In this document: in pieces, positions 931 through 24,459 of the stretch
How positions within the stretch are numbered: the stretch's first letter is position 1
Layout of the letters: each line of letters starts with the position of its first letter
Source: Bacteroidaceae bacterium
GTDB lineage: Bacteria > Bacillota_I > Bacilli_A > RFN20 > CAG-826
Length of the DNA: 64,000 nt
NCBI GenBank assembly: GCA_963624045.1
Contig: CAVFNI010000008.1
Span: 3,054 to 67,053 of the forward strand
Direction of reading: 5' to 3'
Translations under genes and position numbers: made by a program
Notes under the pieces: generated by a model
What the model saw: only the letters and a program-made list of their open reading frames with translations
Told to the model about the DNA's origin: nothing
Database searches by the model: none

Positions 931-1560
931 CTATTTTTGCTCATTCTTTTGAGATTCATGGTTGACGAAAATGGCGGGTGTTTTGCCTCCGCCATAATTG
1001 AACATTATTTTAGAGAGCCCCTTTGCCTTATCCGGGTTCCTGTTCATATAATCGCGGGCAGATTTAACTATGCCCGCAACCAATTCAACAACACTTAAAT
1101 ACACATATTTGCGTGTTTTCTCGACTTTGCCGTTTGTCTGCGTTGAATGCAAATCTTGTTTAATTCCTGCAACATCTCCCCTAACAAAAGGTTCTTTGCC
1201 CATGACGAGAACGAATTCGGCTATGTCAGTTTTTTTGGCAATATCGTTGCTACCATCGTGAAAAAGCGAGCATCTTAGTTGATAACAGCACGCGCCATCG
1301 AAAATAACCGAGCCACCTTGTTTATAAAACTCATCCGAATAAAGTAAACCCACGCTGTTATGAACGTTTCCATCGAACCATTGCGCATAATTCCTCTTTC
1401 CGCCCCTTCCGTACATTAATTTGGCGAAAGAATCTGGAATGCTCAAAGCCAAAGCGAGAGCAGCGAAATATTCGCCATGCGCAAGGCAGGAGTAAATTTC
1501 TTTCTCAACAAAATCAAACGAATTCACTTCAATAAAATTTTCTGAAATGACCACATTCAC
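931..1560 (-). CDS. hypothetical protein with a HEPN-like Rx4H motif (possible RNase)
   Basis: 209-aa ORF with an apparent GTG start, 45 nt downstream of the methyltransferase gene. Contains YQLRCSLFHDG (R-x4-H) preceded by an alanine-rich helix (GEYFAALALALSIPDSFAKL), as seen in HEPN families linked to R-M and Abi loci. Confidence 0.45.
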   Translation of the reverse strand: MNVVISENFIEVNSFDFVEKEIYSCLAHGEYFAALALALSIPDSFAKLMYGRGGKRNYAQWFDGNVHNSVGLLYSDEFYKQGGSVIFDGACCYQLRCSLFHDGSNDIAKKTDIAEFVLVMGKEPFVRGDVAGIKQDLHSTQTNGKVEKTRKYVYLSVVELVAGIVKSARDYMNRNPDKAKGLSKIMFNYGGGKTPAIFVNHESQKNEQK

Positions 1561-1605
1561 TATCCAAAGATTTCAATCTGTCGTGCGACGTTCTAAAACA
1601 AAGCC

Positions 1606-2631
1606 TTATATTTTGAGCAACGCTTTTATTTGAGCCGCAATAGCTTTAATAACAGGAACAGTAACTGAATTTCCCAATTGTTTATACGCCGATGTGTCGG
1701 ATTCATTGAACTTATATTCTGGTGGAAAACCTTGCAACCTAGCCCATTCTTTAGGAGTGAGCTTGCGAATACCTTTTTTATTGATTTGACCGCGAATACT
1801 GGTCACGGGTGTAAGATTGGTTTGCCTTTTATCAATAATAAGATTCCTTTCCCGTCCCATGCCGCCGCAAACAACCGTACCAGCCAAATCGTCAAGATCG
1901 CGAATTTTATAACCAAATCCTCGCCCTGCGTTGACCTGTTTTTGCTTGTGTCGTTCGAGACAAGATAGATACGTTTCCGAAAGATAATATTTAGCGCTGA
2001 CAGGCTCTTCTTCGAGAATCGATCTAATAGTGTTGTTTTCTTTAGCAATTGGTTTGGGCCAAGGAAAATCATTTCCGTCAGAAAGGGGGTTAATATCTCG
2101 TCTAATGCACACCATATATGTCCTCTCACGGGTTTGCGGAACGCCAAAATCCTGACTCCTTAGAACCTTGAAATAGAAATCGTACCCAATCTGTCGAAAC
2201 GCGCCTTCGATGATTTTAAAGGTATTACCTCCATTATGGGTAAGAAGACCTTTGACATTCTCGCAAAATATCACTTTCGGTTTATGATATTCGCATATTC
2301 TCACAACCTCATAAAACAGAGTTCCGCGAGACATTCCACGATAACTGTCATTTAATCCCATCTTTTTTCCAGCAATGCTGAATGCCTGACACGGAAACCC
2401 TGCCAAACAAATATCGAACGTCGGGATATCGTGTTCATCAATTTTCGTAATATCTCCCGATAATTCAAATGGGTCGTGGAAATTATCACTGTATACTTTC
2501 TGTGCTTTTTCGTCGAATTCGCTAACAAAAACCGTCGATAAACAAGGCCCAAATCCCTGTTCAAAACCAATCCTTATGCCTCCGATGCCAGCAAACAAAT
2601 CTATTGAACGGATTTTATTTTCTTCAGACAT
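1606..2631 (-). CDS. DNA (cytosine-5)-methyltransferase
   Basis: All canonical m5C methyltransferase motifs are present: DLFAGIGG (I), GFPCQAFS (IV, catalytic Cys), ENV (VI), QTRERTY (VIII), GNSVTVPV (X). Confidence 0.9.
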   Translation of the reverse strand: MSEENKIRSIDLFAGIGGIRIGFEQGFGPCLSTVFVSEFDEKAQKVYSDNFHDPFELSGDITKIDEHDIPTFDICLAGFPCQAFSIAGKKMGLNDSYRGMSRGTLFYEVVRICEYHKPKVIFCENVKGLLTHNGGNTFKIIEGAFRQIGYDFYFKVLRSQDFGVPQTRERTYMVCIRRDINPLSDGNDFPWPKPIAKENNTIRSILEEEPVSAKYYLSETYLSCLERHKQKQVNAGRGFGYKIRDLDDLAGTVVCGGMGRERNLIIDKRQTNLTPVTSIRGQINKKGIRKLTPKEWARLQGFPPEYKFNESDTSAYKQLGNSVTVPVIKAIAAQIKALLKI

Positions 2632-2635
2632 AAAA

Positions 2636-3814
2636 CTATATACCGGCCTTTCTTCTTCCTATAAAACGAATTTGCAAATTCAAACGAATAAATGGAATTC
2701 CATTCTCTCTCACCAAAACAGTGCCGTAATTGCTACGACTCTTACTACAATCAGGATGCTCAAGTTTAGTGTTTTGAAACAAATATTCCTTAAAATCATC
2801 CGTATCAGTGGAAAGGCATCCAGACACCTCGAATTGCGGATCGATAATCAAATAACCGCCATCGACATCGTTTTGTCCGCTCCACCTTTCGGTCGGAACC
2901 ATGCCAGCGAAGCAAGCATACAAATAATCTTTGATTTTCTTTTTGTAAAAAGCTTTGTCATAAGCCTTGTCGTAAACGGGCCTATGGAGAATCAATGCTT
3001 TCGGCATTTCGGAAAGAAGGGTTGGATGATCGTCAGAAAAATAATGAAGTTGAACAACATCCGATAGTATTGTCGGCAATACCGAATCAACCATCCCGAG
3101 ATTTAATTCAAACGTCGATGTCCCGTTCTTGTCCTTCGCGAGACCCATCGGAACAATATCGGCACCCAGTTCGATGATTTTCATACATCTCCCAAACAAA
3201 TCCACGGCATGCTCACCACTCTTTCTTCGTCTAGATAGGCAAATAGAGTTGATTTTGCTGATATTTTGAAGACTTAATCCTAAAAGATCGTATTCAAAAT
3301 TAGTTTGGAAAGAGCCGTTTTGCAAAGACGCGGGGCACGCAAAATCCGATTTAATAGAGAAGCCTGCTGAAACGCGATTCCCCGTTCTTGGATTAACATA
3401 CCTTAAGAGGATATCACACTTCCCTCCTACCCTAACGCCGTTAACAATTGACGGAAGGCTTCTTGCCTTAGGTTGATCGATTCCACATCTCTTCATAAAA
3501 TCGATGAGTTTGCTCGACAACTGAAAAGCACCTTTTCCAGTCAAAAGTTCGCCCTTCAGTTTTTCTGCGTTAATCATGAATTCGAATTGTTCTATATTCG
3601 CGAAAAAACCATCGGCGCTAATGCGAACAACCGAATCGTCAATAACGAATTCCAACAATCCTTTCGAACAACAACGAATTATCGATTCAATTACCATCGT
3701 CTTATCGGGCTTATTTTCAAGAGGATCGCGAATTATCAATTGACCGCTGCCCAATATTGAATAAAGCAAATACAATTCGGCCCATTCACCTTTGTTTTTA
3801 TAGATTTCACCCAT
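2636..3814 (-). CDS. type II restriction endonuclease, HpaII-like (probable CCGG specificity)
   Basis: 392 aa, ending 4 nt upstream of the methyltransferase gene start. The N-terminal NKGEWAELYLLYSILG and the GFSIKSDFACPASLQNGSFQTNFEY block resemble my recollection of the HpaII endonuclease family. The family assignment is from memory and was not searched. Confidence 0.6.
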   Translation of the reverse strand: MGEIYKNKGEWAELYLLYSILGSGQLIIRDPLENKPDKTMVIESIIRCCSKGLLEFVIDDSVVRISADGFFANIEQFEFMINAEKLKGELLTGKGAFQLSSKLIDFMKRCGIDQPKARSLPSIVNGVRVGGKCDILLRYVNPRTGNRVSAGFSIKSDFACPASLQNGSFQTNFEYDLLGLSLQNISKINSICLSRRRKSGEHAVDLFGRCMKIIELGADIVPMGLAKDKNGTSTFELNLGMVDSVLPTILSDVVQLHYFSDDHPTLLSEMPKALILHRPVYDKAYDKAFYKKKIKDYLYACFAGMVPTERWSGQNDVDGGYLIIDPQFEVSGCLSTDTDDFKEYLFQNTKLEHPDCSKSRSNYGTVLVRENGIPFIRLNLQIRFIGRRKAGI

Positions 3815-3820
3815 CGGTCG

Positions 3821-4627
3821 TTATTCCTCTTCGTCCTCTTCTTCTGAATCGTCGGAAGTGCTAGCTTTATTGTCGAAGTCACCATTTGCAATAGATTCAA
3901 ATAACCCTTCTATGATAGCTAAACCATCATCGAAGGACATCGCATCCAATGAAGTCACCGCCAGAACGTTATTTATATTCTTAGCAAGGAGGCGTGATCT
4001 TCCGTGCCCAACGATATCGGCGCGGTCCCCCCATTCAAGAAAAGACGTGACACACATATCGAAAATAGCTGGATTCCTAGAATAATTATTCTCGAGCACA
4101 CGATCCAAAACGACGCGATTTTCAAAGAAACAACGAAGTTTTTTCTCAAAAAGTTCTTCGTTTCCGAGTTCAGTTACTTGAGCGATAAGATACGCCGGCC
4201 AAAATAACATCAAAATCCCATTTCTAGCATAAGGAGCCCTTCGGAAAAAGTATCGATCAAGCACTCTTTTATCGCCATGTTTATCATCAATTGGCCATCT
4301 TTTTTTCATGTAATCCAAGTAAATAAAATGTGTGATGTACGCCATCAACCTTTCGTCATGCAAAAGCGTAAGAGGCACCTCGTTTTCAGCAAAAAAGCGA
4401 TAGATTAACAAAGAGTTTCTAAAATCGTTTTCCCATAAAGAGATTGAATCGTCGGCATCATAAAGCGTTGGAAACGTATCGTTTTGCAAAAGGCACTGTG
4501 TGAATTCAAAAGTAGAAAACCTAGCCTTATCCAATGTCTCGTTTGCATATATGGCAAGATTTCCTTGCGCAAATTTTTTTAAGTCTTCTAGACCCTTATC
4601 AGTTAGTAATTTAATAAAATTCGCCAT
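3821..4627 (-). CDS. hypothetical protein with an acidic C-terminal tail (member of the GHKL cassette)
   Basis: 268-aa ORF. Its stop lies 6 nt before the endonuclease start. The C-terminus is STSDDSEEEDEEE. No motif recognised. Confidence 0.6.
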   Translation of the reverse strand: MANFIKLLTDKGLEDLKKFAQGNLAIYANETLDKARFSTFEFTQCLLQNDTFPTLYDADDSISLWENDFRNSLLIYRFFAENEVPLTLLHDERLMAYITHFIYLDYMKKRWPIDDKHGDKRVLDRYFFRRAPYARNGILMLFWPAYLIAQVTELGNEELFEKKLRCFFENRVVLDRVLENNYSRNPAIFDMCVTSFLEWGDRADIVGHGRSRLLAKNINNVLAVTSLDAMSFDDGLAIIEGLFESIANGDFDNKASTSDDSEEEDEEE

Positions 4628-4630
4628 ATT

Positions 4631-5554
4631 TTATTCCCCGTATTCAGACGCCTTCTCAAAGGCGGTCATCATCATTTGCCCTTGCGCGTCGGTGAGCAGT
4701 TCCCCGGTTAGTTCCCAGGCGTAATCGCTTATGGTGTTGTCTTTTGATGGTTCGAAAGATTCTGGCTCAAACGGAGATTCCTTGAGCCTTTCCCTGATTT
4801 CGTTGAGTTTGTTCTTTATCGCCGCATACCATTTATATGCTTCGTATTCTTGATGATTTGTTAGCATCGCTTCTATAGCCATGTGGACGGTCGGATAGCA
4901 AATAACTGCATTCACCATATGAGAAAGGCTAGGTTGCGTTTGTTGGATGGATTTAACATCGTTAGCGATCGTTTTGTTGGCGTAAACGTAAATAATGTCT
5001 TGCTCCAAATCCAAATAAAAAGGCTTGTGAAGGTCTTCGTGCTCTAACGACCTTATTTTGATTATCGATGAAAGACCCCTTAATTGATCTGTTTTGATTT
5101 CCAGCACCCTTCCATATCCAAGAATCTGGCCCTTTTCGATTTCAAACGAATCACGATCAAACATTCCGTATATCGGGTCCATATACGTTTTATCAAATAG
5201 AAGATTAGTTTTTTTGTTAGCAATAATTATTGGAGTCAATTCGATATTCTTTCCTAACCTCAACATGTATGGCTGAATGAGGATTTTGCATCCTTTAACG
5301 TAATCGATGGCCTGGCGAATGGTGTCTTGTTCCTCAATAATTACGATTTTAGCTTCTTCGTTTTCAATCAATTTTTCGAGAGGCGGACAAACGACATCCA
5401 CACGAACCTCATATTCATAAGAGAGAGCGATTCCCTCTCCGCTCTTGTAAGGTTCTCCAACAATGGAAATATTGAATTCACATTTTTCGTTATAATCCCC
5501 GCCGTCGCGAAGCAAAACCGGCAACGGATGGTTACCCTTAATCGGCGCTTTCAT
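4631..5554 (-). CDS. hypothetical protein (member of the GHKL cassette)
   Basis: 307-aa ORF. The start overlaps the GHKL gene stop by 17 nt and is preceded by GGAGGTGGTGA. No motif recognised. Confidence 0.6.
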   Translation of the reverse strand: MKAPIKGNHPLPVLLRDGGDYNEKCEFNISIVGEPYKSGEGIALSYEYEVRVDVVCPPLEKLIENEEAKIVIIEEQDTIRQAIDYVKGCKILIQPYMLRLGKNIELTPIIIANKKTNLLFDKTYMDPIYGMFDRDSFEIEKGQILGYGRVLEIKTDQLRGLSSIIKIRSLEHEDLHKPFYLDLEQDIIYVYANKTIANDVKSIQQTQPSLSHMVNAVICYPTVHMAIEAMLTNHQEYEAYKWYAAIKNKLNEIRERLKESPFEPESFEPSKDNTISDYAWELTGELLTDAQGQMMMTAFEKASEYGE

Positions 5555-7652
5555 CTTTCACCACCTCCATAGCAGATTCCTTTCCTTCAAAACTCTCTTT
5601 TTTGGAGTTCGGAATCTCAATTGTATATGTCTTAGTAACGGTCGCGTATTCCAAAAGCATCGCCCTAAATGGCGTTTTAAAAAACACTCTGATGTGCATG
5701 TATTTATCATCGTTTATAATGATGTTTTTTAGCACGTTTTCAGAAATGTCCGTTAAACACTCCCCTGTATTTAAATCTATGGCCCCCTCAATCGATGGGA
5801 GATTGTTGTTTTCCTTGCTCTGTTCATCAACCGCAGCGATATGGAGATCTATCTTCTTAAATGAAGCGCTGCCGATTCTCCCTATTATCTCCACTTCTTT
5901 AGCGTATGGAGCATGGATGTCGCGAAAAGTTGCTGAAACATTTAAAGTTTTGTCATAAGTTATGAGGCGTTTCCCGTCGCTACTAGAATTTTCTGCATCT
6001 TTCGCCGTCTCGCGTTCATGATCCCAGTTGTGTTCATGGTTAGGATCATGGTTCCATTCTTCTGCTTTCAAACCGCCACCTTCGAAACTATCGGGATCGT
6101 CCCTTTTTGAATCCCTTTTGCGGATGCCGCTTTTTTTCTTTTTGACGCTCTGAGCAGGTTCTTCAACGACTTTCATCAATGGTTCTGTTCCAGTTCCGTA
6201 ATCACCGCTAATTTTTATGTCTTCCTCAAGAGATATGAAGTTTGTAAGTCCCGCAAGTTCAATATCGGTTTCTGAAGAATCAAATTGTCCAAATTGTTTG
6301 AGATGTCCGCTTACCCAATTTTCCAAATTTTCAATGGTCTTTTTAACGCTCAATCGGCTTTCTCCCAACGAAGAAAAATCATATTCCGTATGATTGCCCG
6401 CTTCGGCTCTAAGCAATAGTTCATTGCCAGGTTCTCCTTCAATTACAAGAACACCGGCTACAGGTCTTTGGGTTTTAACGTTTTTCGAAATGGTTCGCAT
6501 TCCAAAAGAACGATAAATAGACCATTGTCGGACAGTAACATCTTTGCTTTTGTTTAAATAAAGCGTAACGGGGCCAACACCTTCCATGCCATCTTCGTGA
6601 ATTTGACTAAAATCGTCGCCGCCTTTCGCTCCTTTATACGTCTCTAACAATGTTTTAGCCTCTTCAACAACGTTACTCAATTCAGCCGATCCGTCTCTAG
6701 ACGCTAATTTGTCTATAATCTTAGGGGCGTTTTCGTCAATTCTTATTTCTCCGCAATTTTCGGCTTTAATGGTGAGAGCAATTTTCTTTTCCAAAAATGC
6801 GACAAAAAAGTTCTTAATGGCATAGGCGGCCATGAGAAAAGGCCATTCTTCGTTATCAAATTTAGCGTTCTCGTCTGTGCCAAGGATAATGACGTCCGTC
6901 CCCTTTTGATCTCTCTTAAACAAGCCTTTACCAGCTGACGCAACTTCGTCAAAACTAATTGGCATTAAAGAATCAAAATCGTTGCAATCCAGAATGTTGT
7001 CGAGCGATTCACCATAAGAAACAAGACGGCCGTTCATTCTTTCGATGTGCCCGTCAACTTTGCTGGAAGCCAATCTTGAGCTGCCCGCTAAACCATAGCC
7101 TTCATCGGTTCTAGTAACGTAGATAACAGAAGAAAGGCCACTAAAAGGGAACGTTGCGTTTTTGCCAACCCCAACCCCGCCGCCAGAGCTAGAATCAGGT
7201 TTATCAGACGTGCCCTCCTGAAACAATAATTTCCAAAATGCCTTTTCGCCGTCGTATTTTTCAATGCCAGGGATACCTTTCGTATTAAAATCGGAAAACT
7301 TAAAATATCGCAAATAATCTTTCTCCAATAATTTTAATTGGCTTTTTGATTTGCTGATAATTCGCTCGTTTTTGCTATTTTCACCTTGGGCGAAATCGAT
7401 TGTTCCTTGGATGTGTTTGCGAAGATCGTCCAAACACAAAGCGTCATAAATGGAAGTGTTTGGAACTTTACCTTCTTCGGCGACCATTTCAACGGTAACA
7501 TTCCCATCATGAGCGTCGCGTGAATTTTGAATAAGTTCACGGATTAGAATCTCAATTCCAAGGGCGCCACTAAGCATGGCTGGATTGGCCGTAAGAATTT
7601 TTTCGGGGGAATTTTCTTTCCAAAATAGCCATCCCTTCTTTTTTTCCGACAT
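5538..7652 (-). CDS. GHKL (Bergerat-fold) ATPase, MORC/sacsin-like N-terminal domain
   Basis: N-box RELIQNSRDA (ExxxNxxD), G1-like SDFNTKGIPG, G2 GGGVGVGKNATF. The start was re-set to the ATG at 7652, which lies 8 nt after GGGAGG; an ATGA overlap with the upstream stop occurs at 7658-7655. The track's N-terminal extension to 7790 overlaps the upstream gene. Confidence 0.75.
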   Translation of the reverse strand: MSEKKKGWLFWKENSPEKILTANPAMLSGALGIEILIRELIQNSRDAHDGNVTVEMVAEEGKVPNTSIYDALCLDDLRKHIQGTIDFAQGENSKNERIISKSKSQLKLLEKDYLRYFKFSDFNTKGIPGIEKYDGEKAFWKLLFQEGTSDKPDSSSGGGVGVGKNATFPFSGLSSVIYVTRTDEGYGLAGSSRLASSKVDGHIERMNGRLVSYGESLDNILDCNDFDSLMPISFDEVASAGKGLFKRDQKGTDVIILGTDENAKFDNEEWPFLMAAYAIKNFFVAFLEKKIALTIKAENCGEIRIDENAPKIIDKLASRDGSAELSNVVEEAKTLLETYKGAKGGDDFSQIHEDGMEGVGPVTLYLNKSKDVTVRQWSIYRSFGMRTISKNVKTQRPVAGVLVIEGEPGNELLLRAEAGNHTEYDFSSLGESRLSVKKTIENLENWVSGHLKQFGQFDSSETDIELAGLTNFISLEEDIKISGDYGTGTEPLMKVVEEPAQSVKKKKSGIRKRDSKRDDPDSFEGGGLKAEEWNHDPNHEHNWDHERETAKDAENSSSDGKRLITYDKTLNVSATFRDIHAPYAKEVEIIGRIGSASFKKIDLHIAAVDEQSKENNNLPSIEGAIDLNTGECLTDISENVLKNIIINDDKYMHIRVFFKTPFRAMLLEYATVTKTYTIEIPNSKKESFEGKESAMEVVKDESAD

Positions 7653-7654
7653 TT

Positions 7655-8662
7655 TCATTTCCTCCCGAATATTTTGTATAAAGGTGGTCTCAGGTCTTTT
7701 TTTGACGGACCGTCTGAATAGAATTTCTCTTCCACCGCATTGAAGGTATAGCCAAAAATACCAGCGGCATGGAGCCCTTTCATAGCGCAATCTTTTTTCG
7801 CCGATAATTCGATATCGCCGTATGCGTTTTCTGGTACCACCCCCACTAGAACGATATGAAATATATCTCTAAGCAAAAGCGGTCTACCATTCGCGGCGGC
7901 TACGTTATTTTTTATTCTCTCAATGGCCGTTTCAGTAATTCTTATATCGGCAATGGACCAAACTTGATACGAATCCCATAAAATCAAATCGCCAAATCTC
8001 CTCTTTTTCAGTCGATTCTTGACATCTTCGATAGACAACGCATATTTGCCAGCAATGATATTGATGTTAAAAGGTTTGTGCCCATTTTCATCAAGAAGAA
8101 GTTTGTTCATCGCCTCCATGCTAGGATCATATCCGTGAGCCGCAATATAGCCGTTTGCATATATCAGTTTGGAAGTTTCGAACGCCCTTAATAAATTAGA
8201 TAAATTCGATATCGACGCCTCTTTCAATTCATTCTCCAGTTTATGCTTCAAAAAAGATTCAGGAAGAATTTTATGTACGTCCACCATTTCTAAAATCTTC
8301 TTTTTTATTTCTTCTAGTTTTTGCGTTCTCGACAACGGTTTCGGCATCGATAGCCTATCAGTATAATCATCGTTCTCTCCAACCGTTTCATCTTTACAAA
8401 CGCCAAAAGCAGCCAACGAACTCAACAGAAAACTTTTTTTAACTAACGTAGTTTTTGGAGCGATGACATTCATCACGAGCATAATCTCTCCCATCGGAAT
8501 CTTTAACTGCTTGACAATAATTCTGCTCAACGTAAGAGCGGCATATTCGTCAACCTCCAAATAATTCATTTGCTCAAGAGCGGCCTCAAGCACCACTTTG
8601 CAGAAACTGGGATTGGTTAAAATATGCTTGCCTTCTATTTCTGATGAAACGAACATTCCCAT
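7655..8662 (-). CDS. hypothetical protein (member of the GHKL cassette)
   Basis: The ORF was trimmed to the ATG at 8662 (MGMFVSSEIEG...). This start lies 1 nt after the stop of the 77-aa gene and is preceded by GGAGGAG. No motif recognised. Confidence 0.55.
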   Translation of the reverse strand: MGMFVSSEIEGKHILTNPSFCKVVLEAALEQMNYLEVDEYAALTLSRIIVKQLKIPMGEIMLVMNVIAPKTTLVKKSFLLSSLAAFGVCKDETVGENDDYTDRLSMPKPLSRTQKLEEIKKKILEMVDVHKILPESFLKHKLENELKEASISNLSNLLRAFETSKLIYANGYIAAHGYDPSMEAMNKLLLDENGHKPFNINIIAGKYALSIEDVKNRLKKRRFGDLILWDSYQVWSIADIRITETAIERIKNNVAAANGRPLLLRDIFHIVLVGVVPENAYGDIELSAKKDCAMKGLHAAGIFGYTFNAVEEKFYSDGPSKKDLRPPLYKIFGRK

Positions 8663-8663
8663 T

Positions 8664-8897
8664 TCAGTCGTCTCCTCCAAATTTAAATGGTTTGACGCGA
8701 CTATCTTTTGGGGAAAAAGCCGTTTTTGTATCGCGGACAGCTTCATCAATGGCTCTAAGCATTTGCGCCGCCTCTTCTTGGGTATACGCATAATTATTTT
8801 TGTTTGCGCAGTTAGCCAATAAACGAAGATCTTTAATGATTCTATTTGTTCTTGCCGCCGCTATTTTATGAAACCTTGCGTGCTTATCTTTGTCCAT
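8664..8897 (-). CDS. small helical protein, first gene of the cassette (possible regulator)
   Basis: 77-aa ORF directly downstream (minus sense) of an A+T-rich putative promoter region at 8898-9120. It is translationally coupled to the next gene. Confidence 0.45.
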   Translation of the reverse strand: MDKDKHARFHKIAAARTNRIIKDLRLLANCANKNNYAYTQEEAAQMLRAIDEAVRDTKTAFSPKDSRVKPFKFGGDD

Positions 8898-9611
8898 GCT
8901 TTATCCACATTTTTCTATATTTGTAATTAATTTGCATGCTAAAGATATATATGTCAATAAAAATATTCTTAAATACTATATTTAACAAATGTAGTAATAA
9001 AACGCTGAATAATTATACAACCAAAAGTAAATGCTATTCGTGTTTCCCAGTAGAACCGCTGAGGAATTGGCGCATCGAAAAGAGCCAGCAATACCCTACC
9101 ATCGTAGGCGACATGTGACCTTGGCATCGATAAGGTGGCTTTCTATCCTTGCGCTGCTAAAGAAAAAAGGAGGGAAGGCGCATGAATGAATCTAACAACG
9201 AAAACGGGGAACCGTACTTAGGCAGCGGAATTCCTGAGAAAATCGGCGAGAAACGCAGTCAATTCTGCCATGGAGGATCATTTCGTCTCTTTTTTAAGAA
9301 TTATCCACTCGCCCTGCAAAGAATCTTTAATCGCTTGTTGTTGGGAAGGGGGATAGATTAGCCTGTTCATCATGGTATATTCCTGCAATGATAAAACATC
9401 ATTCTTCTCAGTTAATGTTTTGTCGCAAGCGCAAATGAACTCATCCCAAGAAACGGAATCTTTGCCATTTAAAGCGGCCCTTATGCATCTAGATGAGATT
9501 ATTCATACATGATTTCATACTCATCCGCGGAACGTCGTGTTTCCCACGATTATCTCGAGTGTGAGCGCATAAACGCTTCTACGGGCAGATTAGAACCTAA
9601 TTAGGACCTTC

Positions 9612-10574
9612 TTAGAACCTCGTTTTATAAAAAACAACGCCCTTCCCCTTCCCGTTCACGTAATTTCTCAATTTATAAATGTCTTGCTTAATAATATCTT
9701 GATAAGTCATGTGTTTATTGTTGTATCGGATAGAGCTTTTGATCCTCTTATAGAACCCTTCAATAAGTTTCGTCCTCACCTCTTGGGAAAAGTCTTCACC
9801 ACGCTTAAAATTCTCTGGCTTCAGAGTTCTATCGTGTATTAAATTCACCACCACTTTCTCTATGGTGATGGGCTTGTAAATGTCGGCCATATCGAGTTGC
9901 AAGGTATATTTCCTGTCGTTACTGGAATGATTATATCCAACGGAAGGGTTCAGCCCGCATTCCACGATGTAAGATAATATTTCGTTATAAAGCACGCCGT
10001 TTAGGAAGGTTATTATCTTATTTACGGGATCCGTTGGCCGATAAGCTCGTCTATATAAGAGACGAAAGCCGTATTGCGCCAATAGGCAATCGATATATTC
10101 GTAATATCTTTTGATGGCCAACGCCTCGTTAAGCATTATGAAATTGGCCGTCACGGCCGCTTGAACCTTTCTCCTTTTGTCTTTGAAGTATTTTAAATCG
10201 ACCCCCAAAGAACGATAAGCGAGCAACGAATACGATAGATTGTTGATTTCGGCATCGACTATTTGTTTGGCAATGTATAGCCTAACGTCCTCATCCAAAT
10301 AGCATCTAACCTGATTCACTAACGTATTTCCTCGATAATTATTATTGTTGAGCAATTCCATGTATTCTTTTGTTATGCGGTTATACAAAAACAAATTGAT
10401 CCCACGTTTCTTCAATTCCTTTAGAACGTCGCAGGATACGCTGATATCAGAAAAGGCGTAGATATTGGATATCACTTCTATCGGATATGTTTTAAGCGGG
10501 CTGTCGATTTCTTGAAAAGACAAGGTTTCGTCTTTGATCCTGAGCGAGCCTTCCTTCATCAACATCAGATTCAT
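9612..10574 (-). CDS. cas1: CRISPR-associated endonuclease Cas1
   Basis: 320 aa with the Cas1 core pattern: NEALAIKRYYEY (Glu), RPTDPVNKIITFLNGVLY, GLNPSVGYNHSS (His), LQLDMADIYKP (Asp). It overlaps cas2 by 4 nt. Confidence 0.85.
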   Translation of the reverse strand: MNLMLMKEGSLRIKDETLSFQEIDSPLKTYPIEVISNIYAFSDISVSCDVLKELKKRGINLFLYNRITKEYMELLNNNNYRGNTLVNQVRCYLDEDVRLYIAKQIVDAEINNLSYSLLAYRSLGVDLKYFKDKRRKVQAAVTANFIMLNEALAIKRYYEYIDCLLAQYGFRLLYRRAYRPTDPVNKIITFLNGVLYNEILSYIVECGLNPSVGYNHSSNDRKYTLQLDMADIYKPITIEKVVVNLIHDRTLKPENFKRGEDFSQEVRTKLIEGFYKRIKSSIRYNNKHMTYQDIIKQDIYKLRNYVNGKGKGVVFYKTRF

Positions 10575-10831
10575 AGCAGCATATTCTCTTCTAAATCGTT
10601 TCTTCCATACACCTCTCTAGAACCATACGGAAGCTTATCCAAAAAATAACAAATGATGGAATCTTCTTCCTTTATAGAGGATTCCAATTGAGCAATCATC
10701 TCACGATATTTAGATTCGCATATCTTGACTTCAAAAACCGATTCCTGAACCTGCACCATGTATTTCTTACATATCTTAAACACCTTCTTAACTCGACTTG
10801 AATCCACATCGTAAATCAACAAAACACGCAT
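10571..10831 (-). CDS. cas2: CRISPR-associated endoribonuclease Cas2
   Basis: The start was trimmed to MRVLLIYDV, the typical Cas2 N-terminus with the catalytic Asp. About 86 aa, immediately upstream of cas1. Confidence 0.8.
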   Translation of the reverse strand: MRVLLIYDVDSSRVKKVFKICKKYMVQVQESVFEVKICESKYREMIAQLESSIKEEDSIICYFLDKLPYGSREVYGRNDLEENMLL

Positions 10832-10891
10832 GAATCTAATCCTAATCTTCCTTAGCACATTTCGAAGGAAATTAACTGTTTTGCTGTTCAA

Positions 10892-11055
10892 TTACCTCAA
10901 ATGTGAACAATTCGTGTCTACATAGTAGGTCAAAACGCACTGGTCAACAACAATTTTCTTGGACAATTCTCGGAAATCAGGTTGAAAATTCGACTGTCTA
11001 TCCTAAAATTATCCGTGATAAGTCGATTTCGAGCTTAAAAAACAGGGAATTGACT
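10892..11055 (+). promoter_or_regulatory. putative CRISPR leader (if the array is read on the plus strand)
   Basis: A+T-rich non-coding tract between the divergent cas2 and repeat 1. It ends in AGGGAATTGACT, which resembles the 3' end of the repeat. Confidence 0.35.
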
Positions 11056-11940
11056 ATCCTTAAGGTACCTAGAAGGAATTGAAACGACGGCGATGCCGTC
11101 GTCCTTCTCATTGAGCGTCTTCATCCTTAAGGTACCTAGAAGGAATTGAAACATGAGGGTTTCAACCGACGTTCCTCCATTGACTTATCCTTAAGGTACC
11201 TAGAAGGAATTGAAACCAATTTCGGAAGCGTCAAACTCAATAGTAATCACTTGATCCTTAAGGTACCTAGAAGGAATTGAAACAATGCCGCATTCAGCGG
11301 CTCTGTTTCGCGATATCCGGATCCTTAAGGTACCTAGAAGGAATTGAAACGAAGAGAAAGCTGACAATTAAGTCGGCTATTTCTTATCCTTAAGGTACCT
11401 AGAAGGAATTGAAACGAAGTACCGACGCGGGGACGCGCTGTGCGGGGACGTATCCTTAAGGTACCTAGAAGGAATTGAAACCGCTCGGTGCATTTGCAAA
11501 CGGCGCCAGTTATAAATCCTTAAGGTACCTAGAAGGAATTGAAACCCCTCTTTGTCCGTCTTGAAAAGGTTGATGACACCATCCTTAAGGTACCTAGAAG
11601 GAATTGAAACCATTTCTAAGGGTCTCAATTTCGGAAGCGTCAAACTCATCCTTAAGGTACCTAGAAGGAATTGAAACTAGCCCCGCAGCTAAACATTCAG
11701 CTAAAATTTTGTATCCTTAAGGTACCTAGAAGGAATTGAAACAATACTGGCACCAGCAGCAGCGGCACAAGCGATTCCATCCTTAAGGTACCTAGAAGGA
11801 ATTGAAACATCGTGCCTTGCCCTTTTTGGGTGGCTTGTGGAACGCATCCTTAAGGTACCTAGAAGGAATTGAAACAAAGCCAAGCAAACAAACTTTTCTT
11901 TTTCATCTTTATCCTTAAGGTACCTAGAAGGAATTGAAAC
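11056..11940 (+). CRISPR. CRISPR array, 14 identical 30-nt repeats and 13 spacers (34-37 nt)
   Basis: The repeat is ATCCTTAAGGTACCTAGAAGGAATTGAAAC. Repeats start at 11056, 11123, 11187, 11254, 11321, 11386, 11452, 11516, 11581, 11648, 11713, 11779, 11846 and 11911. The plus orientation is proposed because the repeat ends in ATTGAAAC, the canonical 8-nt Cas6 5' handle, preceded by a CCTT...AAGG stem. Confidence 0.95.
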
Positions 11941-11984
11941 CATTGACAATGCCGCAAAATTCGGCTAGGTGTATAACAAGAAGC

Positions 11985-12270
11985 GAGTGATGCGCCCCGG
12001 CGAAGCTCCGGGCCTCCGAGGAGGATACAACCTAAAAGTCGAGCGCCGAGTAGATTCGGCACCACGGGCCGTCTCCAGGCGAATTGCAGACCGCTACCGA
12101 ATCAAAACGGAAAACTTTTGGTTTGGCCATCATCGGAGGGTAGAGTACCCATAACTTGAATGGGCAGCCACATAGGAACGCTGAAATCCGGGCCTCAATG
12201 ACGGCATCACACGCTTGAGGACGCAGGGTAATTCGTCTCAGCGATGTCCATTGCGATATCGCTGAGACAT
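11985..12270. other. G+C-rich, hairpin-rich non-coding block (candidate structured RNA or convergent terminator region)
   Basis: My hand count gives about 62% G+C over 11991-12110, against clearly A+T-richer flanks. Features: a perfect 11-bp-stem hairpin at 12235-12245/12258-12268, smaller hairpins (CCCGG..CCGGG at about 11995-12012; GCCGAG-TAGA-TTCGGC at about 12044-12060), and a 10-nt direct repeat TCCGGGCCTC at 12007 and 12187. There is no convincing ORF. Confidence 0.3.
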
Positions 12271-12520
12271 AGAAAAGATATAATTCTAATAATCAACGAA
12301 AATCTTGATGTTTAGTTTAATACATGCTCATCTGGCGTTATGGAAAACACGCCCTTCGAATTATTTTAAACTGCCTAAAAGAAATCGAAGTCATCGGGCT
12401 GCGACGCATATAACGCGCTTTATCAGTGAAACCAAAAGCGGTTGTCGCAAGAGGACTACGGGCTTAACAGCCGTTAAACCGTCAAAACCGACGGAACGCT
12501 TTCTCTTTATCGCACGTCAA

Positions 12521-15277
12521 TCAGTCTTCATCGAATCTAATATGCAAGCCGTTCCTTATGCGCTCATATTTGCCAAGGACGGCACGATATTCTTTTTTTA
12601 TCGGCTCATCTAGCATTAATAATTTCTCAATGGCATCGACATCGATATCGACATCTTCTTTCCGCTCACCACATCTCAATGCGTTATGTTTTAATTCGCT
12701 GATTCGTTGCCAAAGTTCATCGTTACCCAAAATGGCGCGGTAATAATCGTTCTTTTCTTTATCTCCGACGTCTTTAAGCGACAAAACGTAATTCACCGAG
12801 CGCACAAAGCTGTATTTTCTGTTGTAATAATCGTGATAGCTCTGATTGTTGGCGGATTCCTTGAGGTTTTCTATCTCACCGATGTATTTGCCATATCTGC
12901 TTTTTATCGTATCTATCGAGCGTTCTTTTTGAAGTTTCTCCCATTCATTTTCATCGCCTATAACTTCAGACAATCTTTCCCCCAATATCGTTTCGAAGCA
13001 GACGTCCATCTCGCGCAGAGCGCTCTCGTATTCTTTATAACGTATTAGATAATAAGCTTTGATCAATTTCCTAACGACACTACCATCTTTATTGTTGCTC
13101 AGTTTATTTATGTTCTCTTTTATTTCTCCTTCTAGTTCAATTCCATTATGAACGAAATCGTCGTAAAAGGCGTTTTGGACCAAAAACAATCGCCCAATCG
13201 CCTTCTTGATATCGTCTTTTTCGATAAAGTCCAACAAAGTGTCCCCCGTCTGCGGCGCAGGAATGTGTCCATTTTCTTCATGCCCGCCACCACCATTGCC
13301 TTCCGTGTGCACAGAAGCTTTCGTATCTATGCCGGCCTTCCCGTCTCTAACGTTTATGACCTTTATTCTGTCGGGATAGCACAAAGACATGAATGTCATG
13401 GCCATTTTGCAATTGGGGATCCCCGATGATTCGATCAAATATATGACGTCGTACTTATCCAATAAGGCGTTGACGAGATTGGCGATGTATTTGGAACACG
13501 TTTTGTAATCGTAGGAACTCGATTCGCCTTTCAAAGAGGCCGCCGATACCAAATCTTCTTCGTTTAAAATCGTTTTTCCATCGATGATCTCCCTTGCTTT
13601 GGAAGCACCGTTTTCTTCCAGTTCTTCATTGAAAGGAAGGAAGTATATCTCTTCGGTTCCATAAATCCGTTTCATGGTATCGACGTCATAATGTAGGTCT
13701 TTGAATAAAACGGCGACGATTTCGTTCGACAAAATGCAATAAAAAGGGATTTTCTTCTTTGCGTTTTTCTTTTGCAAATTGACCAATTCTTTTTTCTCGG
13801 AAGGGATCTGCGTGTCTTTCCCGATCGCCATGAAGAACGATAACGTCGATCCTGGGATAAGGCTTTGGCTTTCCTTGCTAAAACGCGCCGGGTCGGTTGA
13901 GCCAAGCATTGACAAAAAGCAAATTTTATTCGTCTTCTCATTGAATTTTATGCTCGTCTTTAAATTCTTTTTGATATCGGAACCGCACATGTCGATAACT
14001 TTGTCGAAGCAAAGGTCAAATCCGCTAGTTTTGTATTCTGATGGAACGCAATCCATGAATTCCTTTTCGAATTTTCGCGTTAGCTGATCTAGGAGTTTTT
14101 TGAAATCGCCGTCCGTAAAGAGGTTACCTTTATGATGACCAGGGTGCCTGAGGTAATTGTATTTTTTGTTAAATCCATTTATTAGGCAATCGTCGATTCC
14201 CTCGATTGGATCGTATTTGTTATTTTTGGCTCCGCTTTCTAAGCCATAATTTTGCTCAAATTCAAGATATATATCCGCTTTGCTGGAATTTTTATAATTG
14301 CGGCCATCTATTTGTATGTGCTTATCATGTTCGAGATTGCGCAAGACAAACAGCAATTTGTCGCAAATGACATAAGCGATCTTCGTATCCAGATTGCCCG
14401 CTTCATCTTTGGCTTTGAGGTTAATAAGCCTGAACATGAAATATTCGGCGATCTCTTCTTTTGAAAGCCGTCCCAAGCCCTTCAACGACAGCGAATCCGT
14501 TTCGTTGGCAAACGCTTTACGCATTTTCGAAGCGGCGTTATTGGGCTCAAATATGTTTCGGTGATTAAGATAATGATAATATGCCGAAAAATAACGCTTT
14601 TCATCGAGCAAACAAGAAATGATTTTTTTATGGCAGTCCAAAACCATCGTATCCATATCGGATTTCACCGCCACCCTGCCAACGACCTCGTCCACGCTTT
14701 GCGCATCCCCGGCGAATTCCTGCCAGCTTTTGCATAATTCGGCAAATTCGGCGGCGTCCTTGTCTGTTTTGTGGCTAAAGCCGCTTTTATTCTCAATGGA
14801 TTGACTGAAAAAGAGTTTTTCTTTGTTGCTCGTGCTATAAAGGATCATCAGGGCCTCCTTCGATTGGACGTTTCCACTTTGGAAATTGAAATAAAGGACA
14901 TCGGCCTTCGATTTGCTAAGGAATTCGTCAAATTTATCATAATAATCGGAAACGCTTATCTGCCTATCTTTTGGCCAATCCAAGAATTCGATTCTTATCT
15001 TATTCTTAATGCCTTCTATCTCTTCTCCTCTCTTCTCGAATCTTAATTTCAGGAGATTTAAGACCTCATCGACTTTGGCCCAAAAAAATTCTTCTTTTTT
15101 CTCTTTTGTGACTTCGTTTTTTTCGCTCGCTCCATAAAGAAGAAAAATGCTGTTGATCCGATAGCAGTCGTTATCGATTATCGAGGCGATAAGCTTAAAG
15201 AAAACCGGTTCTTTGTTCTTTCCTTGCATCACGTCGGCGTTGGAAAACATTCCTAATAGATCCACGCTTTTAGACAT
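12521..15277 (-). CDS. large type III-associated protein with two CARF-like modules and HEPN-like motif candidates
   Basis: 918 aa, starting 3 nt after the cas6 stop; it is the last gene of the effector operon. Module 1 has IFLLYGAS (residues 44-51) and NFQSGNVQSKEALM (131-144). Module 2 has ICFLSMLGSTDP (452-463) and IESSGIPNCKMAMT (615-628). These resemble the CARF GxS/T loop and the TGGTKxM-like loop. R-x4-6-H candidates are RHPGHH (377-382) and RIRNGLH (906-912). Confidence 0.5.
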   Translation of the reverse strand: MSKSVDLLGMFSNADVMQGKNKEPVFFKLIASIIDNDCYRINSIFLLYGASEKNEVTKEKKEEFFWAKVDEVLNLLKLRFEKRGEEIEGIKNKIRIEFLDWPKDRQISVSDYYDKFDEFLSKSKADVLYFNFQSGNVQSKEALMILYSTSNKEKLFFSQSIENKSGFSHKTDKDAAEFAELCKSWQEFAGDAQSVDEVVGRVAVKSDMDTMVLDCHKKIISCLLDEKRYFSAYYHYLNHRNIFEPNNAASKMRKAFANETDSLSLKGLGRLSKEEIAEYFMFRLINLKAKDEAGNLDTKIAYVICDKLLFVLRNLEHDKHIQIDGRNYKNSSKADIYLEFEQNYGLESGAKNNKYDPIEGIDDCLINGFNKKYNYLRHPGHHKGNLFTDGDFKKLLDQLTRKFEKEFMDCVPSEYKTSGFDLCFDKVIDMCGSDIKKNLKTSIKFNEKTNKICFLSMLGSTDPARFSKESQSLIPGSTLSFFMAIGKDTQIPSEKKELVNLQKKNAKKKIPFYCILSNEIVAVLFKDLHYDVDTMKRIYGTEEIYFLPFNEELEENGASKAREIIDGKTILNEEDLVSAASLKGESSSYDYKTCSKYIANLVNALLDKYDVIYLIESSGIPNCKMAMTFMSLCYPDRIKVINVRDGKAGIDTKASVHTEGNGGGGHEENGHIPAPQTGDTLLDFIEKDDIKKAIGRLFLVQNAFYDDFVHNGIELEGEIKENINKLSNNKDGSVVRKLIKAYYLIRYKEYESALREMDVCFETILGERLSEVIGDENEWEKLQKERSIDTIKSRYGKYIGEIENLKESANNQSYHDYYNRKYSFVRSVNYVLSLKDVGDKEKNDYYRAILGNDELWQRISELKHNALRCGERKEDVDIDVDAIEKLLMLDEPIKKEYRAVLGKYERIRNGLHIRFDED

Positions 15278-15280
15278 TTG

Positions 15281-16003
15281 TTATTCCTTTTCTAACACTT
15301 CAAAAAATCCGAATCCTTGCGAATTTTTGTCGCCTAACCCGACATCCGACAAGAAAATAAGCTGGTCCTTTGAGCACATCAGCGAGAACTTGGACATATA
15401 TCCGGTAATCGAAAAATCCTTATATAAGGTTCTAACTTCCCGAATTCTGCCTACCGAAGCGATGCGAATATCATCGGCGGCTATTTTTCCGCCATAAAGG
15501 CTAGCCTTATGCTTGAAATTGTTGTTGATTGCCTGAACGAATTCGTCAGTATCAGGCTTTAAATATATCGTTTTGTTCTTGCCATCGACGCTCTCGGTTT
15601 TATGGACGGTCACGGGGGATAGCATTTTTATGAGGTATCGCCGTTTTTCCTCTATAACGATTTCGCCTAGCTCAATGTCGTCTATGACGATCTTTTGCTT
15701 CATGAGAAAGAAATTGCTTTTGTTCTTGAGACAATTGGCCATGATATTCATCAGCAAACGGTTATTCGTAGAAGCCACCGAAAAAGAGACGCCCGACGAA
15801 AACGTGATGATCTTGTTCTTGTTGTCCAGAAGATATTCGCCGTTTAATTGCGAGAAAACAAACGATTTGATATCCGAACTGTTGTGTAGGTTTTTGGCCG
15901 CCTCCCCTATCATCTTATAAATTAACGCCTGTAAGCAGTGATGATATGATAACGGCAACACCAATATGTTCTGTTCGGCGTGAAAGGTTATCTTGATTCT
16001 CAT
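15281..16003 (-). CDS. cas6: CRISPR repeat endoribonuclease Cas6
   Basis: 240 aa. The N-terminus (LPLSYHHCLQALIYKMI) and the C-terminal glycine-rich loop (GLGDKNSQGFGFFEV) are typical of Cas6. Confidence 0.8.
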   Translation of the reverse strand: MRIKITFHAEQNILVLPLSYHHCLQALIYKMIGEAAKNLHNSSDIKSFVFSQLNGEYLLDNKNKIITFSSGVSFSVASTNNRLLMNIMANCLKNKSNFFLMKQKIVIDDIELGEIVIEEKRRYLIKMLSPVTVHKTESVDGKNKTIYLKPDTDEFVQAINNNFKHKASLYGGKIAADDIRIASVGRIREVRTLYKDFSITGYMSKFSLMCSKDQLIFLSDVGLGDKNSQGFGFFEVLEKE

Positions 16004-16007
16004 AAAG

Positions 16008-17831: not shown

Positions 17832-17835
17832 ATCA

Positions 17836-18354
17836 CTAGCCCCTTTCCTTATAAGAATCGAAACCCATAAACCTTGCGTATCTAACAAACGGGAAATCGT
17901 TCTTGTCGTAATCGATATAATTGACGACTTTCAAGGTAATTCCCTTATTCACATCCCCTTGAGCGAATTTTTTAGGGATGACAACACTCTTTTTGCCTTG
18001 GGTCAATTTCGTATAAGATTCCGCGCATTCAGTTGTTTTGCCATCGGACAAAACGAACATATCTTCTTCGATTTTGTCTAGATGCAATTTGTCGATATCG
18101 TCTTGTTTTACAACATCGATGCCATCTTCTCGGTCTAAGTTTATTTGCACGTCCTCATTAAACGCATACCCTTCTAAGAACAAGGAGTCATCTTTAGGAA
18201 GTTCGCTTTCTTTATCCGTGTAAGCGAGGATTCCATCTTTGCTTATCTTCCCAGTGTAGACGTTAGTGACGTACATGAATATAAAATACACATCGTTCTT
18301 AAAATCGTAATTTATGGCATCTAACGCTTCTCTTATGCTCGCAACGACATTCAT
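17836..18354 (-). CDS. small type III subunit, Csx19-like by size and position
   Basis: 172 aa. It overlaps the Cas7-2x gene by 4 nt and occupies the slot Csx19 holds in described III-Dv operons. I recognise no diagnostic motif. Confidence 0.35.
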   Translation of the reverse strand: MNVVASIREALDAINYDFKNDVYFIFMYVTNVYTGKISKDGILAYTDKESELPKDDSLFLEGYAFNEDVQINLDREDGIDVVKQDDIDKLHLDKIEEDMFVLSDGKTTECAESYTKLTQGKKSVVIPKKFAQGDVNKGITLKVVNYIDYDKNDFPFVRYARFMGFDSYKERG

Positions 18355-19703: not shown

Positions 19704-19723
19704 AGTTCTTAGACCTCCTTCCG

Positions 19724-21676: not shown

Positions 21677-21679
21677 AAA

Positions 21680-23728: not shown

Positions 23729-23895
23729 CCATCACTCTTTTTTGTATACTCCTCAATAACTTTATAGATGTAAATCTTCCGTTTGCGTCATATTTTAATC
23801 CATCGCTAGAAAACCAAGCCAAAATGAAACAATATGAGCAAACATACAGTAAAATGATGTTAAGAAGGCTTTTTACCAAAGCGGAAAGGATGTTT

Positions 23896-24459
23896 ATGAA
23901 ACCGATCGTTGCCGTCATAGGAGATGCGCTCATCGATAAGGACGATGAGGAATATGAATTAGGGATAGAGGTCGGTAAGGCCTTAGTCAATGCCGGATAC
24001 CGCGTGCAAACGGGCGGATTGGGCGGGATCATGGAGGCTACGCTTAAAGGCGCTAAGGAATCCTTAAAATACGAATTCGGCGACACTATCGCCATCTTGC
24101 CTGGGAAAGATATCTCCGAAGCAAACGAATACGCCGATATTAAAGTGGCCACCGGCCTTGACCTTATGAGGGCAAAGCAAGTCGTCGACGCCTATGCCGT
24201 CATCGCCATTGGCGGCGGAGCTGGCACTTTGGCGGAAATCGCCACCGCTTGGTCAATGTATAAATTGATCGTCGCCTGGAATAAGAGAGGTTGGTCGAAG
24301 AAATTAGCCAACAGCAGAGTCGACGGAAGATGCCGCTATGAGGAATTAGTGGATGACAAAGTGTATTCCTTCGAAACCGCCGATGAAGCGATAAGGCTCA
24401 TAGACGAAATGGGCGATAAATACCAAAAAGAATATCACGGGATAAAGCGAAGAAAATAA
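23896..24459 (+). CDS. TIGR00725/LOG-superfamily Rossmann-fold protein
   Basis: Contains PIVAVIGD, QTGGLGGIMEATLKGA and IAIGGGAGTLAEI, which are typical of LOG/SLOG-like nucleotide-binding proteins. The start was trimmed to the ATG at 23896, 8 nt after GGAAAGGA. Confidence 0.6.
   Translation: MKPIVAVIGDALIDKDDEEYELGIEVGKALVNAGYRVQTGGLGGIMEATLKGAKESLKYEFGDTIAILPGKDISEANEYADIKVATGLDLMRAKQVVDAYAVIAIGGGAGTLAEIATAWSMYKLIVAWNKRGWSKKLANSRVDGRCRYEELVDDKVYSFETADEAIRLIDEMGDKYQKEYHGIKRRK

Follow-up and report, generated by a model that had tools for sequence, protein, structure and literature searches.

The window, by which we mean the whole 64,000-nucleotide (nt) stretch of DNA analysed here, carries an operon of eight minus-strand genes at positions 931-8897. 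Three adjacent genes of this operon match the three models of PDC-M33, a published phage defence candidate, and the cassette to which they belong is followed by an HpaII-type restriction-modification (R-M) pair. Based on the model matches and the gene order, the locus can be assigned to PDC-M33, and the anti-phage role of PDC-M33 is that of a candidate. Across the family, the constant partner of the cassette appears to be a DNA-modifying enzyme, usually a cytosine-5 (C5) methylase, and not the HpaII nuclease family. We tentatively propose that an ATP-gated GHKL clamp on DNA and its adaptors act as one system with the modification enzyme and the nuclease.

PDC-M33 was described as a 'guilt-by-embedding' phage defence candidate (Payne, Hughes, Fineran, Jackson 2024, bioRxiv 10.1101/2024.01.29.577857). 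It corresponds to cassette CAS_00129 (FAM_02818>>FAM_02838>>FAM_01881) with a count of 98 in a search of RefSeq v209, and it was first detected inside type I R-M, BREX or DISARM loci (10.1101/2024.01.29.577857). It is among 145 PDCs, all of which the authors stated to be untested candidates, and the source study gave no function, domain description or modification-enzyme link for it (10.1101/2024.01.29.577857). We searched the literature on PDC-M33, DUF6339, GHKL ATPases with phosphorothioation, MADS, and GHKL defence, and found no characterisation.

The cassette and its HpaII-type restriction-modification pair

The ATPase gene lies at 5538-7652 (or 7658) on the minus strand. Its product matched the PADLOC model PDC-M33A with an E value of 6.3e-53 (residues 35-662 on model positions 31-613 of 627), while HATPase_c_3 of Pfam (0.017, below threshold) and the sacsin N-box were weak matches. 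The Bergerat motifs are R38-E39-L-x-Q42-N43-x-x-D46-A47, D121...G126, and G158/G161/G163. The N-box residues E39/N43/D46, D121...G126, and the glycine-rich lid G158/G161/G163 did not vary among 13 sequences, the most distant of which have 15-21% identity. By its N-box, motif II and lid, the protein can be assigned to the GHKL (Bergerat-fold) ATPases. An earlier reading of this operon without database searches (the original prediction) had reported a Bergerat-fold signature, and the motifs are indeed real and invariant family-wide. The motif E417-x3-H421 (ExxxH) in the S5-like region was also invariant across the family. ExxxH is a hallmark of paraMORC2 (Iyer, Abhiman, Aravind 2008, PMC2292703). 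Beyond the S5-like region, the protein has a K/R-rich linker followed by a conserved beta-rich C-terminal domain.

The next two genes encode a 307-amino acid (aa) protein (4631-5554) and a 268-aa protein (3821-4627), both on the minus strand. The former matched PDC-M33B (PADLOC, 2.3e-24), and the latter matched PDC-M33C (PADLOC, 9.7e-22) and DUF6339 (Pfam, 1.8e-18). The three genes are adjacent and in the PDC-M33 order A>>B>>C. The original prediction had found no named system for the cassette and no nameable motif in the partners of the ATPase. This no longer holds, as three of the five cassette proteins are PDC-M33A, B and C in PADLOC and the 268-aa protein is also DUF6339 in Pfam.

Proteins B and C were modelled with AlphaFold2. 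The models rest on shallow alignments, since searches with word-indexed homologues gave only the close subfamily (17, 14, and 13 proteins). The B model (predicted local distance difference test score, pLDDT, 81) has two FN3/Ig-like beta-sandwiches, a C-terminal helical bundle and a disordered N-terminal peptide. This peptide, PxPVL, is conserved family-wide though disordered, with P12 and L14 invariant. The best Foldseek matches of B in the PDB were tandem FN3 domains (cytokine-receptor) at E of about 0.01, with no enzyme fold among them. An apparent ExK in B had raised the possibility of a PD-(D/E)xK nuclease. We rejected this assignment, as the ExK is not conserved and the model consists of two beta-sandwiches. 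The DUF6339 protein (pLDDT 86, predicted template modelling score 0.83) forms a compact all-alpha globule from which an acidic, disordered tail extends, and Foldseek gave it no fold match in the PDB (best E = 3). Thus, the models show B and C with non-enzymatic folds, and any DNA cutting must then stem from the linked nuclease.

The cassette begins with a 77-aa small helical protein (gene at 8664-8897, minus strand), followed by a 335-aa protein (7655-8662, minus strand), for which an alternative longer frame of 378 aa starts at 8791. The 77-aa and 335-aa proteins and the 209-aa protein encoded at the downstream end of the operon had no significant family match in Pfam, PADLOC or NCBIfam. When the five cassette families and the 209-aa family were compared as profiles with PDB sequences, no significant match emerged. 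Pfam scans of the individual members of the 335-aa, B and 209-aa families yielded a few scattered matches, all above E 0.04. The 335-aa family is small, with only 7 clusters among 1.84 billion representatives. Weak fold hints (the RPA32 wH in the PDB at E = 0.03, and TFA2_Winged_2 and DprA_WH in Pfam at about 0.2) suggest that the 335-aa protein is possibly made of winged-helix domains. We also asked if it is a diverged duplicate of B or C, and hhalign found no relationship.

Directly downstream of the cassette are a 392-aa HpaII-family type II restriction endonuclease (2636-3814, minus strand) and a 341-aa C5 cytosine DNA methyltransferase (1606-2631, minus strand). The nuclease matched RE_HpaII of Pfam over its full length (6.5e-55, positions 1-359 of 359) and REase_II of PADLOC (2e-46). 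The methylase matched DNA_methylase of Pfam (1.8e-90) and TIGR00675 dcm (2.7e-89). It contains the motifs DLFAGIGG, GFPCQAFS, ENVKGL, QTRER, and GNSV, as a complete C5 methylase does. By these matches the locus contains a standard HpaII-type R-M pair. There are 75 CCGG sites in the window compared with 148 expected, and this observed/expected (O/E) ratio of 0.51 is the lowest of the 16 palindromic tetramers. CCGG O/E was below 0.86 in 8 out of 9 close loci, while distant loci averaged about 1.0 (range 0.39-1.47). From this site depletion alone, the pair is probably CCGG-specific.

The close set consisted of 17 word-indexed ATPase homologues, the contigs of nine of them, and one genome match (an uncultured 'Mollicutes' gut metagenome-assembled genome, MAG). 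The order of a 75-77 aa gene, a 324-350 aa gene, the ATPase, a gene of about 310 aa, and DUF6339 is kept in all close relatives, so that the 335-aa gene is found in all close loci. At least 8 independent contigs share this order, with protein identities of 24-70%. The RE_HpaII nuclease and the C5 methylase come right after the cassette in all 7 of the 7 distinct close contexts that extend far enough downstream (L002/L029, L016, L020, L022, L024, L025/26, and L027/28). Three lineages have the pair co-directional with the cassette, and four or five have it convergent. The methylase (62-70% identity to the window protein) and the 77-aa protein (55-70%) are the most conserved of the locus, followed by B (42-50%), the ATPase (41-48%), DUF6339 (39-49%), and the 335-aa protein (29-38%). 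The nuclease has 47-49% identity in the co-directional group and 24-25% in the convergent group.

The original prediction had read the locus as a composite operon of the defence type, with a GHKL machine coupled to an HpaII-like R-M pair, and had asked if the five genes co-occur across genomes. Both points stand: the five-gene order recurs with the R-M pair in close relatives, the pair follows in every one of the seven informative contexts, and a CRISPR-Cas locus adjoins the operon. Other defence-island genes (AIPR, McrBC, Shedu, and ABC ATPases) were found near the relatives. In two independent assemblies of one close lineage (L020 7430-8208, L021 5883-6457), the DUF6339 gene is split into two overlapping open reading frames (ORFs) by an apparent frameshift.

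Distant relatives and their DNA-modifying neighbours

The distant loci number at least about 20, and contig scans of genomes and metagenomes gave at least 14 and at least 9 loci. The distant ATPases, at 15-27% identity, are all PDC-M33A by PADLOC, and B and C are retained. A hidden Markov model of the 77-aa family found homologues immediately upstream of the GHKL gene (E = 1e-17 to 1e-35) in L003, L030, L033/34, L037, plasmids L040-L044, and phage L045. The hosts are a Lachnospiraceae MAG, several metagenome contigs, and the plasmid carriers Priestia megaterium, Deinococcus actinosclerus, Arthrobacter agilis, Paenarthrobacter ureafaciens, and Planococcus lenghuensis. Since the 77-aa gene is present across phyla, on plasmids and in a prophage, the natural unit has four genes (77 aa, A, B, and C), and the 77-aa gene is a conserved fourth component of PDC-M33-type loci. 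The 335-aa gene is best described as a rare insertion particular to this lineage. Therefore, the five-gene block of the original prediction holds as the order in close relatives, but the widespread unit has four genes. The published three-gene model is incomplete, as it is without the small first gene.

Most distant relatives have their cassette beside C5-methylase R-M systems other than the HpaII type. A C5 methylase adjoins the cassette in L003, L006, L007, L030, and L040-L045, and it is directly upstream in L003, L006, and L007. The nucleases paired with these methylases differ (Sau3AI/MutH-type, AlwI-type, and unnamed type II), and a vsr gene is often present too. The Priestia locus has a Sau3AI-type nuclease and dcm; the Deinococcus locus has dcm and vsr; the Arthrobacter locus has dcm, vsr and a nuclease; the Paenarthrobacter locus has a nuclease and dcm; and the Planococcus locus has an AlwI-type nuclease, vsr and a C5 methylase. 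On the Priestia megaterium plasmid p3_GEB3 (L040), GATC has an O/E of 0.42, tied with GGCC as the lowest palindromic tetramer. This GATC depletion fits the Sau3AI/MutH-family nuclease and dcm that flank its PDC-M33 cassette. In the temperate phage NatCom_9291 of [Clostridium] innocuum (L045, PV036421.1), the four-gene cassette at 1907-9912 is beside the integrase, and thus it travels as prophage cargo. An HTH (helix-turn-helix)-fused C5 methylase and a 545-aa protein are downstream of this cassette.

In other distant loci, the cassette is tied to a different kind of modification enzyme. In L004 and L005 from Dehalococcoidia and in L014 from Cenarchaeum, a single fusion protein combines DUF6339 with an SspD-like PAPS-reductase/PP-loop domain (PADLOC SspD, 1e-15). 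The gene after the fusion encodes SspE in L004 (PADLOC, 1e-236) and a DndB-like protein in L014, and L005 also has PbeA. The ATPase and B of these three loci match PDC-M33A and PDC-M33B, not SspC and SspB. Moreover, proteins of 414-432 aa are encoded immediately upstream of distant PDC-M33 ATPases in three further loci (L008 1561-2859, L012 8634-9899, and L015 3424-4668). Their N-terminal part contains an SGGRSS PP-loop motif, and their C-terminus ends in CxCTD. They gave a short SspD-like match and no Pfam match, and they may be a new DNA-modification enzyme.

The L004 contig contains two divergent PDC-M33A-like GHKL genes (7614-9506 on the minus strand and 9902-11770 on the plus strand), each with its own downstream genes. 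An Mrr-type type IV nuclease is nearby.

Possible roles of the cassette

We infer the following mechanism for the cassette. The ATPase would dimerise upon ATP binding and clamp or loop DNA, and its K/R-rich linker may aid DNA binding. B and C would be adaptors, with DUF6339 docking the DNA-modifying enzyme. The assembly would scan DNA and coordinate the methylation of self DNA with the cleavage of unmodified incoming DNA, and a simple type II pair might thereby be turned into an ATP-dependent system. Such a design would parallel the DndD-DndE and SspC-SspB cores, which serve phosphorothioate or cytosine-methylase modules. The DUF6339-SspD fusion is the strongest single argument that the clamp works with the modification enzyme. 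The second argument is that the HpaII-type pair is kept through inversion and divergence.

Several observations weigh against this mechanism. One copy is inside a type I R-M system in L. salivarius, and another is near AlwI and adenine methylases in Lactococcus. No methylase or PP-loop gene was found among the neighbours examined in L010 and L013 (one L013 neighbour was scanned, and the L010 flanks were not profile-searched). The sample of distant loci, about 20 at least, is small. CCGG is not depleted in L027. HpaII-type R-M pairs function elsewhere without such a cassette. Finally, since PDC-M33 has been found embedded in type I R-M, BREX and DISARM loci, clustering in defence islands could explain part of the linkage.

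We consider a different explanation possible but doubtful. The cassette might be an independent anti-phage system that sits beside R-M genes by defence clustering, or that serves as a back-up when R-M is inhibited. Its effector could be the 335-aa protein or a part of the ATPase, either the conserved C-terminal domain or the His-rich segment, or the cassette might compact DNA and cut nothing. The definition of PDC-M33 rests on its embedding in unrelated multi-gene systems and lists only A>>B>>C. Like stand-alone defence cargo, the cassette accompanies R-M systems of very different types and is carried by plasmids and by a prophage, in the latter beside the integrase. The neighbours of the relatives are typical of defence islands, and a type III CRISPR-Cas locus lies next to the copy in the window. 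On the other hand, the DUF6339-SspD fusions suggest that the cassette and a modification enzyme cooperate directly and physically, and the HpaII-type pair stays adjacent despite inversion and deep divergence. Furthermore, B and C have no nuclease, protease, TIR or toxin-like fold in their models, and profiles detected no effector domain in the cassette. If the cassette were independent of R-M, it would still be a defence candidate, with B and C models that match no enzyme fold.

An improbable explanation is that the cassette is a MutL-like helper that deals with the cost of cytosine-5 methylation. As an ATP-driven matchmaker and not a defence effector, it would bring nucleases, of the Vsr type or other, to the T:G mismatches that arise when 5-methylcytosine is deaminated, or it would otherwise maintain the methylation pattern. 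The recurrent partner is specifically a C5 methylase, three plasmid loci have vsr, and R-M-linked MORC and paraMORC proteins have been likened to MutL in mismatch or very-short-patch repair (Iyer et al. 2008, PMC2292703). In contrast, no vsr gene was found in the window or the close relatives, the members tied to SspD-like enzymes and SspE involve no 5-methylcytosine, and the system is mobile on plasmids and a prophage and very sparsely distributed.

The least probable reading, which we consider very unlikely, is a composite along the lines of the original prediction, in which the GHKL machine would sense infection and a HEPN-like RNase, encoded by the 209-aa gene (931-1560, minus strand), would be the effector beside the CCGG R-M pair: the gene is co-directional with the methylase gene and 45 nt downstream of it, its QLRCxLFH (Rx4H) motif is conserved in 3 homologues, and it recurs near the cassette in two or three other lineages, but searches of Pfam, NCBIfam and PDB sequences gave no HEPN family match, the single marginal PADLOC match (DzbB, E = 0.017) is not common to the homologues, and the gene is absent from L016, L017, L020, L024, L025, L027 and all distant members. 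The Rx4H motif is the sole basis of the HEPN assignment, which makes the protein a putative HEPN member at most. The homologues (47-49% identity; L002/L019/L029 and L023) are divergently upstream of the 75-aa gene, and thus both position and orientation are changed. The 209-aa gene is best treated as a facultative neighbour whose membership in the system is uncertain.

Returning to the clamp that cooperates with a modification enzyme, it is possible, though rather unlikely, that PDC-M33 as a whole is a previously unrecognised class of ATP-dependent modification-restriction machinery, with a GHKL/MORC-like clamp in place of a P-loop ATPase. The enzymes docked by DUF6339 would be interchangeable: most lineages would use C5 methylases, and Dehalococcoidia and Thaumarchaeota would use SspD-like enzymes that insert phosphorothioates. 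The clamp would decide where or when DNA is modified or cut. If this were true, a bacterial MORC-type ATPase would be functionally tied to cytosine methylation. There would also be a third, GHKL-based route of DNA phosphorothioation, missed by surveys that require a P-loop NTPase neighbour. Some phosphorothioate-type loci may run on a GHKL ATPase and escape current search criteria.

In eukaryotes, MORC proteins cooperate with DNA methylation. A role of GHKL/MORC ATPases within R-M systems was predicted in 2008 (PMC2292703), and the literature searched held no characterised bacterial R-M-linked GHKL system of this kind. Relative to this literature, the four-gene unit, the obligate HpaII coupling and 335-aa insertion, and the family-wide modification-enzyme link including the SspD fusion appear to be new. 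The PDC-M33 family offers a compact operon of 4-7 genes with a clear hypothesis, namely that the clamp cooperates with the modification enzyme via DUF6339. It is plasmid-borne in hosts that grow readily in culture (Priestia megaterium, Lactococcus lactis, Ligilactobacillus salivarius, and Arthrobacter).

Operon layout, neighbouring genes and comparison with known systems

The eight minus-strand ORFs of the operon run head to tail, and the ORF table gives intergenic gaps that are all at most 45 nt. From 5' to 3', the junctions are a 1-nt gap, 7658/7655, a 17-nt overlap between the ATPase and 307-aa genes, and gaps of 3, 6, 4, and 45 nt. The eight genes and tight junctions of the original prediction were thus all found where it had placed them. 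Its ATPase of 703 aa has to be corrected to 704 aa (start at 7652) or 706 aa (start at 7658). The ATGA overlap that it described at 7658-7655 exists in the sequence, but GGAGG lies 8 nt ahead of the ATG at 7652, and this 704-aa start is favoured by an independent gene call and by the N-termini of the homologues. The favoured start makes a 2-nt gap in place of the overlap.

Upstream of the first gene is an AT-rich leader (8898-9060, minus strand) in which candidate promoter elements, TGTATAAT (extended -10) and TTGACA, can be read. They are candidates only, because the consensus scan overall was no richer than shuffled sequence. Within the block, terminator-like and promoter-like sites were in no excess over shuffled sequence.

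A type III-D-like CRISPR-Cas locus (9612-23167, minus strand) is directly upstream of the cassette. It encodes Csx10- and Csx7-like RAMPs, Csx19, a TIGR03986 RAMP, Cas6, Cas2, and Cas1, as well as a weak Cas10/Csm1-like protein (4.6e-7, below cut-off). A 918-aa ORF (12521-15277) between cas6 and the array had no NCBIfam match. The array, at about 11056-11940, has 14 copies of the 30-nt repeat ATCCTTAAGGTACCTAGAAGGAATTGAAAC and spacers of about 35-37 nt. Two spacers, behind the repeats at 11184 and 11578, have about 22 nt in common (CAATTTCGGAAGCGTCAAACTC), indicating overlapping protospacers in one target. Beside the cas10 end of the locus is a divergent TIGR00725/LOG-like Rossmann-fold gene (23824-24459, plus strand), which may be a nucleotide-signal-related accessory.

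Among known systems, the locus belongs to PDC-M33 itself, as A, B, and C of the window match its models in order and adjacent. The published model has three genes, whereas the window adds the conserved 77-aa gene, the lineage-specific 335-aa gene, and the obligate HpaII-type pair. Similar to a plain HpaII-type R-M system, the window has a full-length RE_HpaII nuclease adjacent to a complete C5 methylase and is depleted of CCGG, while five operon genes are added to the pair.

Mza is a multi-gene, methylase-associated defence locus with a MutL-like GHKL protein and Z1 and AIPR partners. The defence-type locus of the window likewise combines several genes, a GHKL ATPase and a methylase among them. 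The original prediction had noted that Z1/AIPR-type partners are absent, and this is borne out: none of the eight proteins matched Mza, Z1 or AIPR in PADLOC or Pfam, and membership in Mza was rejected. The AIPR genes in L017 and L022 are separate neighbours and not parts of the cassette.

MORC and paraMORC GHKL proteins are found in operons with methylases, Vsr and nucleases, and a DNA-looping role has been proposed for them (PMC2292703). The cassette ATPase family and paraMORC2 both have a GHKL and S5-like module and occur in operons with cytosine methylases, Vsr and restriction nucleases, and the ExxxH motif of paraMORC2 is invariant in the former at the sequence level. The typical partners of paraMORCs are superfamily 2 (SF2) helicases, whereas the cassette has three or four small non-enzymatic partners, and no helicase was found in the window operon or the close loci.

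A final comparison is with the cores of Dnd, Ssp and BREX type 4, in which scanning ATPases with DNA-binding partners recruit phosphorothioate enzymes or cytosine methylases (PMC10853773). The cassette shares the logic of DndD-DndE, CxC-DndE, SspC-SspB, and BrxC-BrxP, an ATPase with non-catalytic partners by a modification enzyme. BrxP is a fusion of SspD and SspB (PMC12914056), in which a PP-loop enzyme is joined to a partner, and relatives of the cassette have a comparable fusion of DUF6339 and SspD. SspE or DndB-like proteins are also downstream in some of these relatives. We considered the cassette proteins as SspB or SspC homologues and rejected this, as they gave no such PADLOC match and as SspC belongs to the AAA+ ATPases and SspB is a protein of the triple winged-helix type (PMC10853773). 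The ATPases of Dnd, Ssp and BREX type 4 are ABC or AAA+ P-loop proteins, whereas that of the cassette is a GHKL protein. The PP-loop enzyme and P-loop ATPase of Ssp and Dnd are absent from the window operon, which has a type II nuclease together with a C5 methylase instead.

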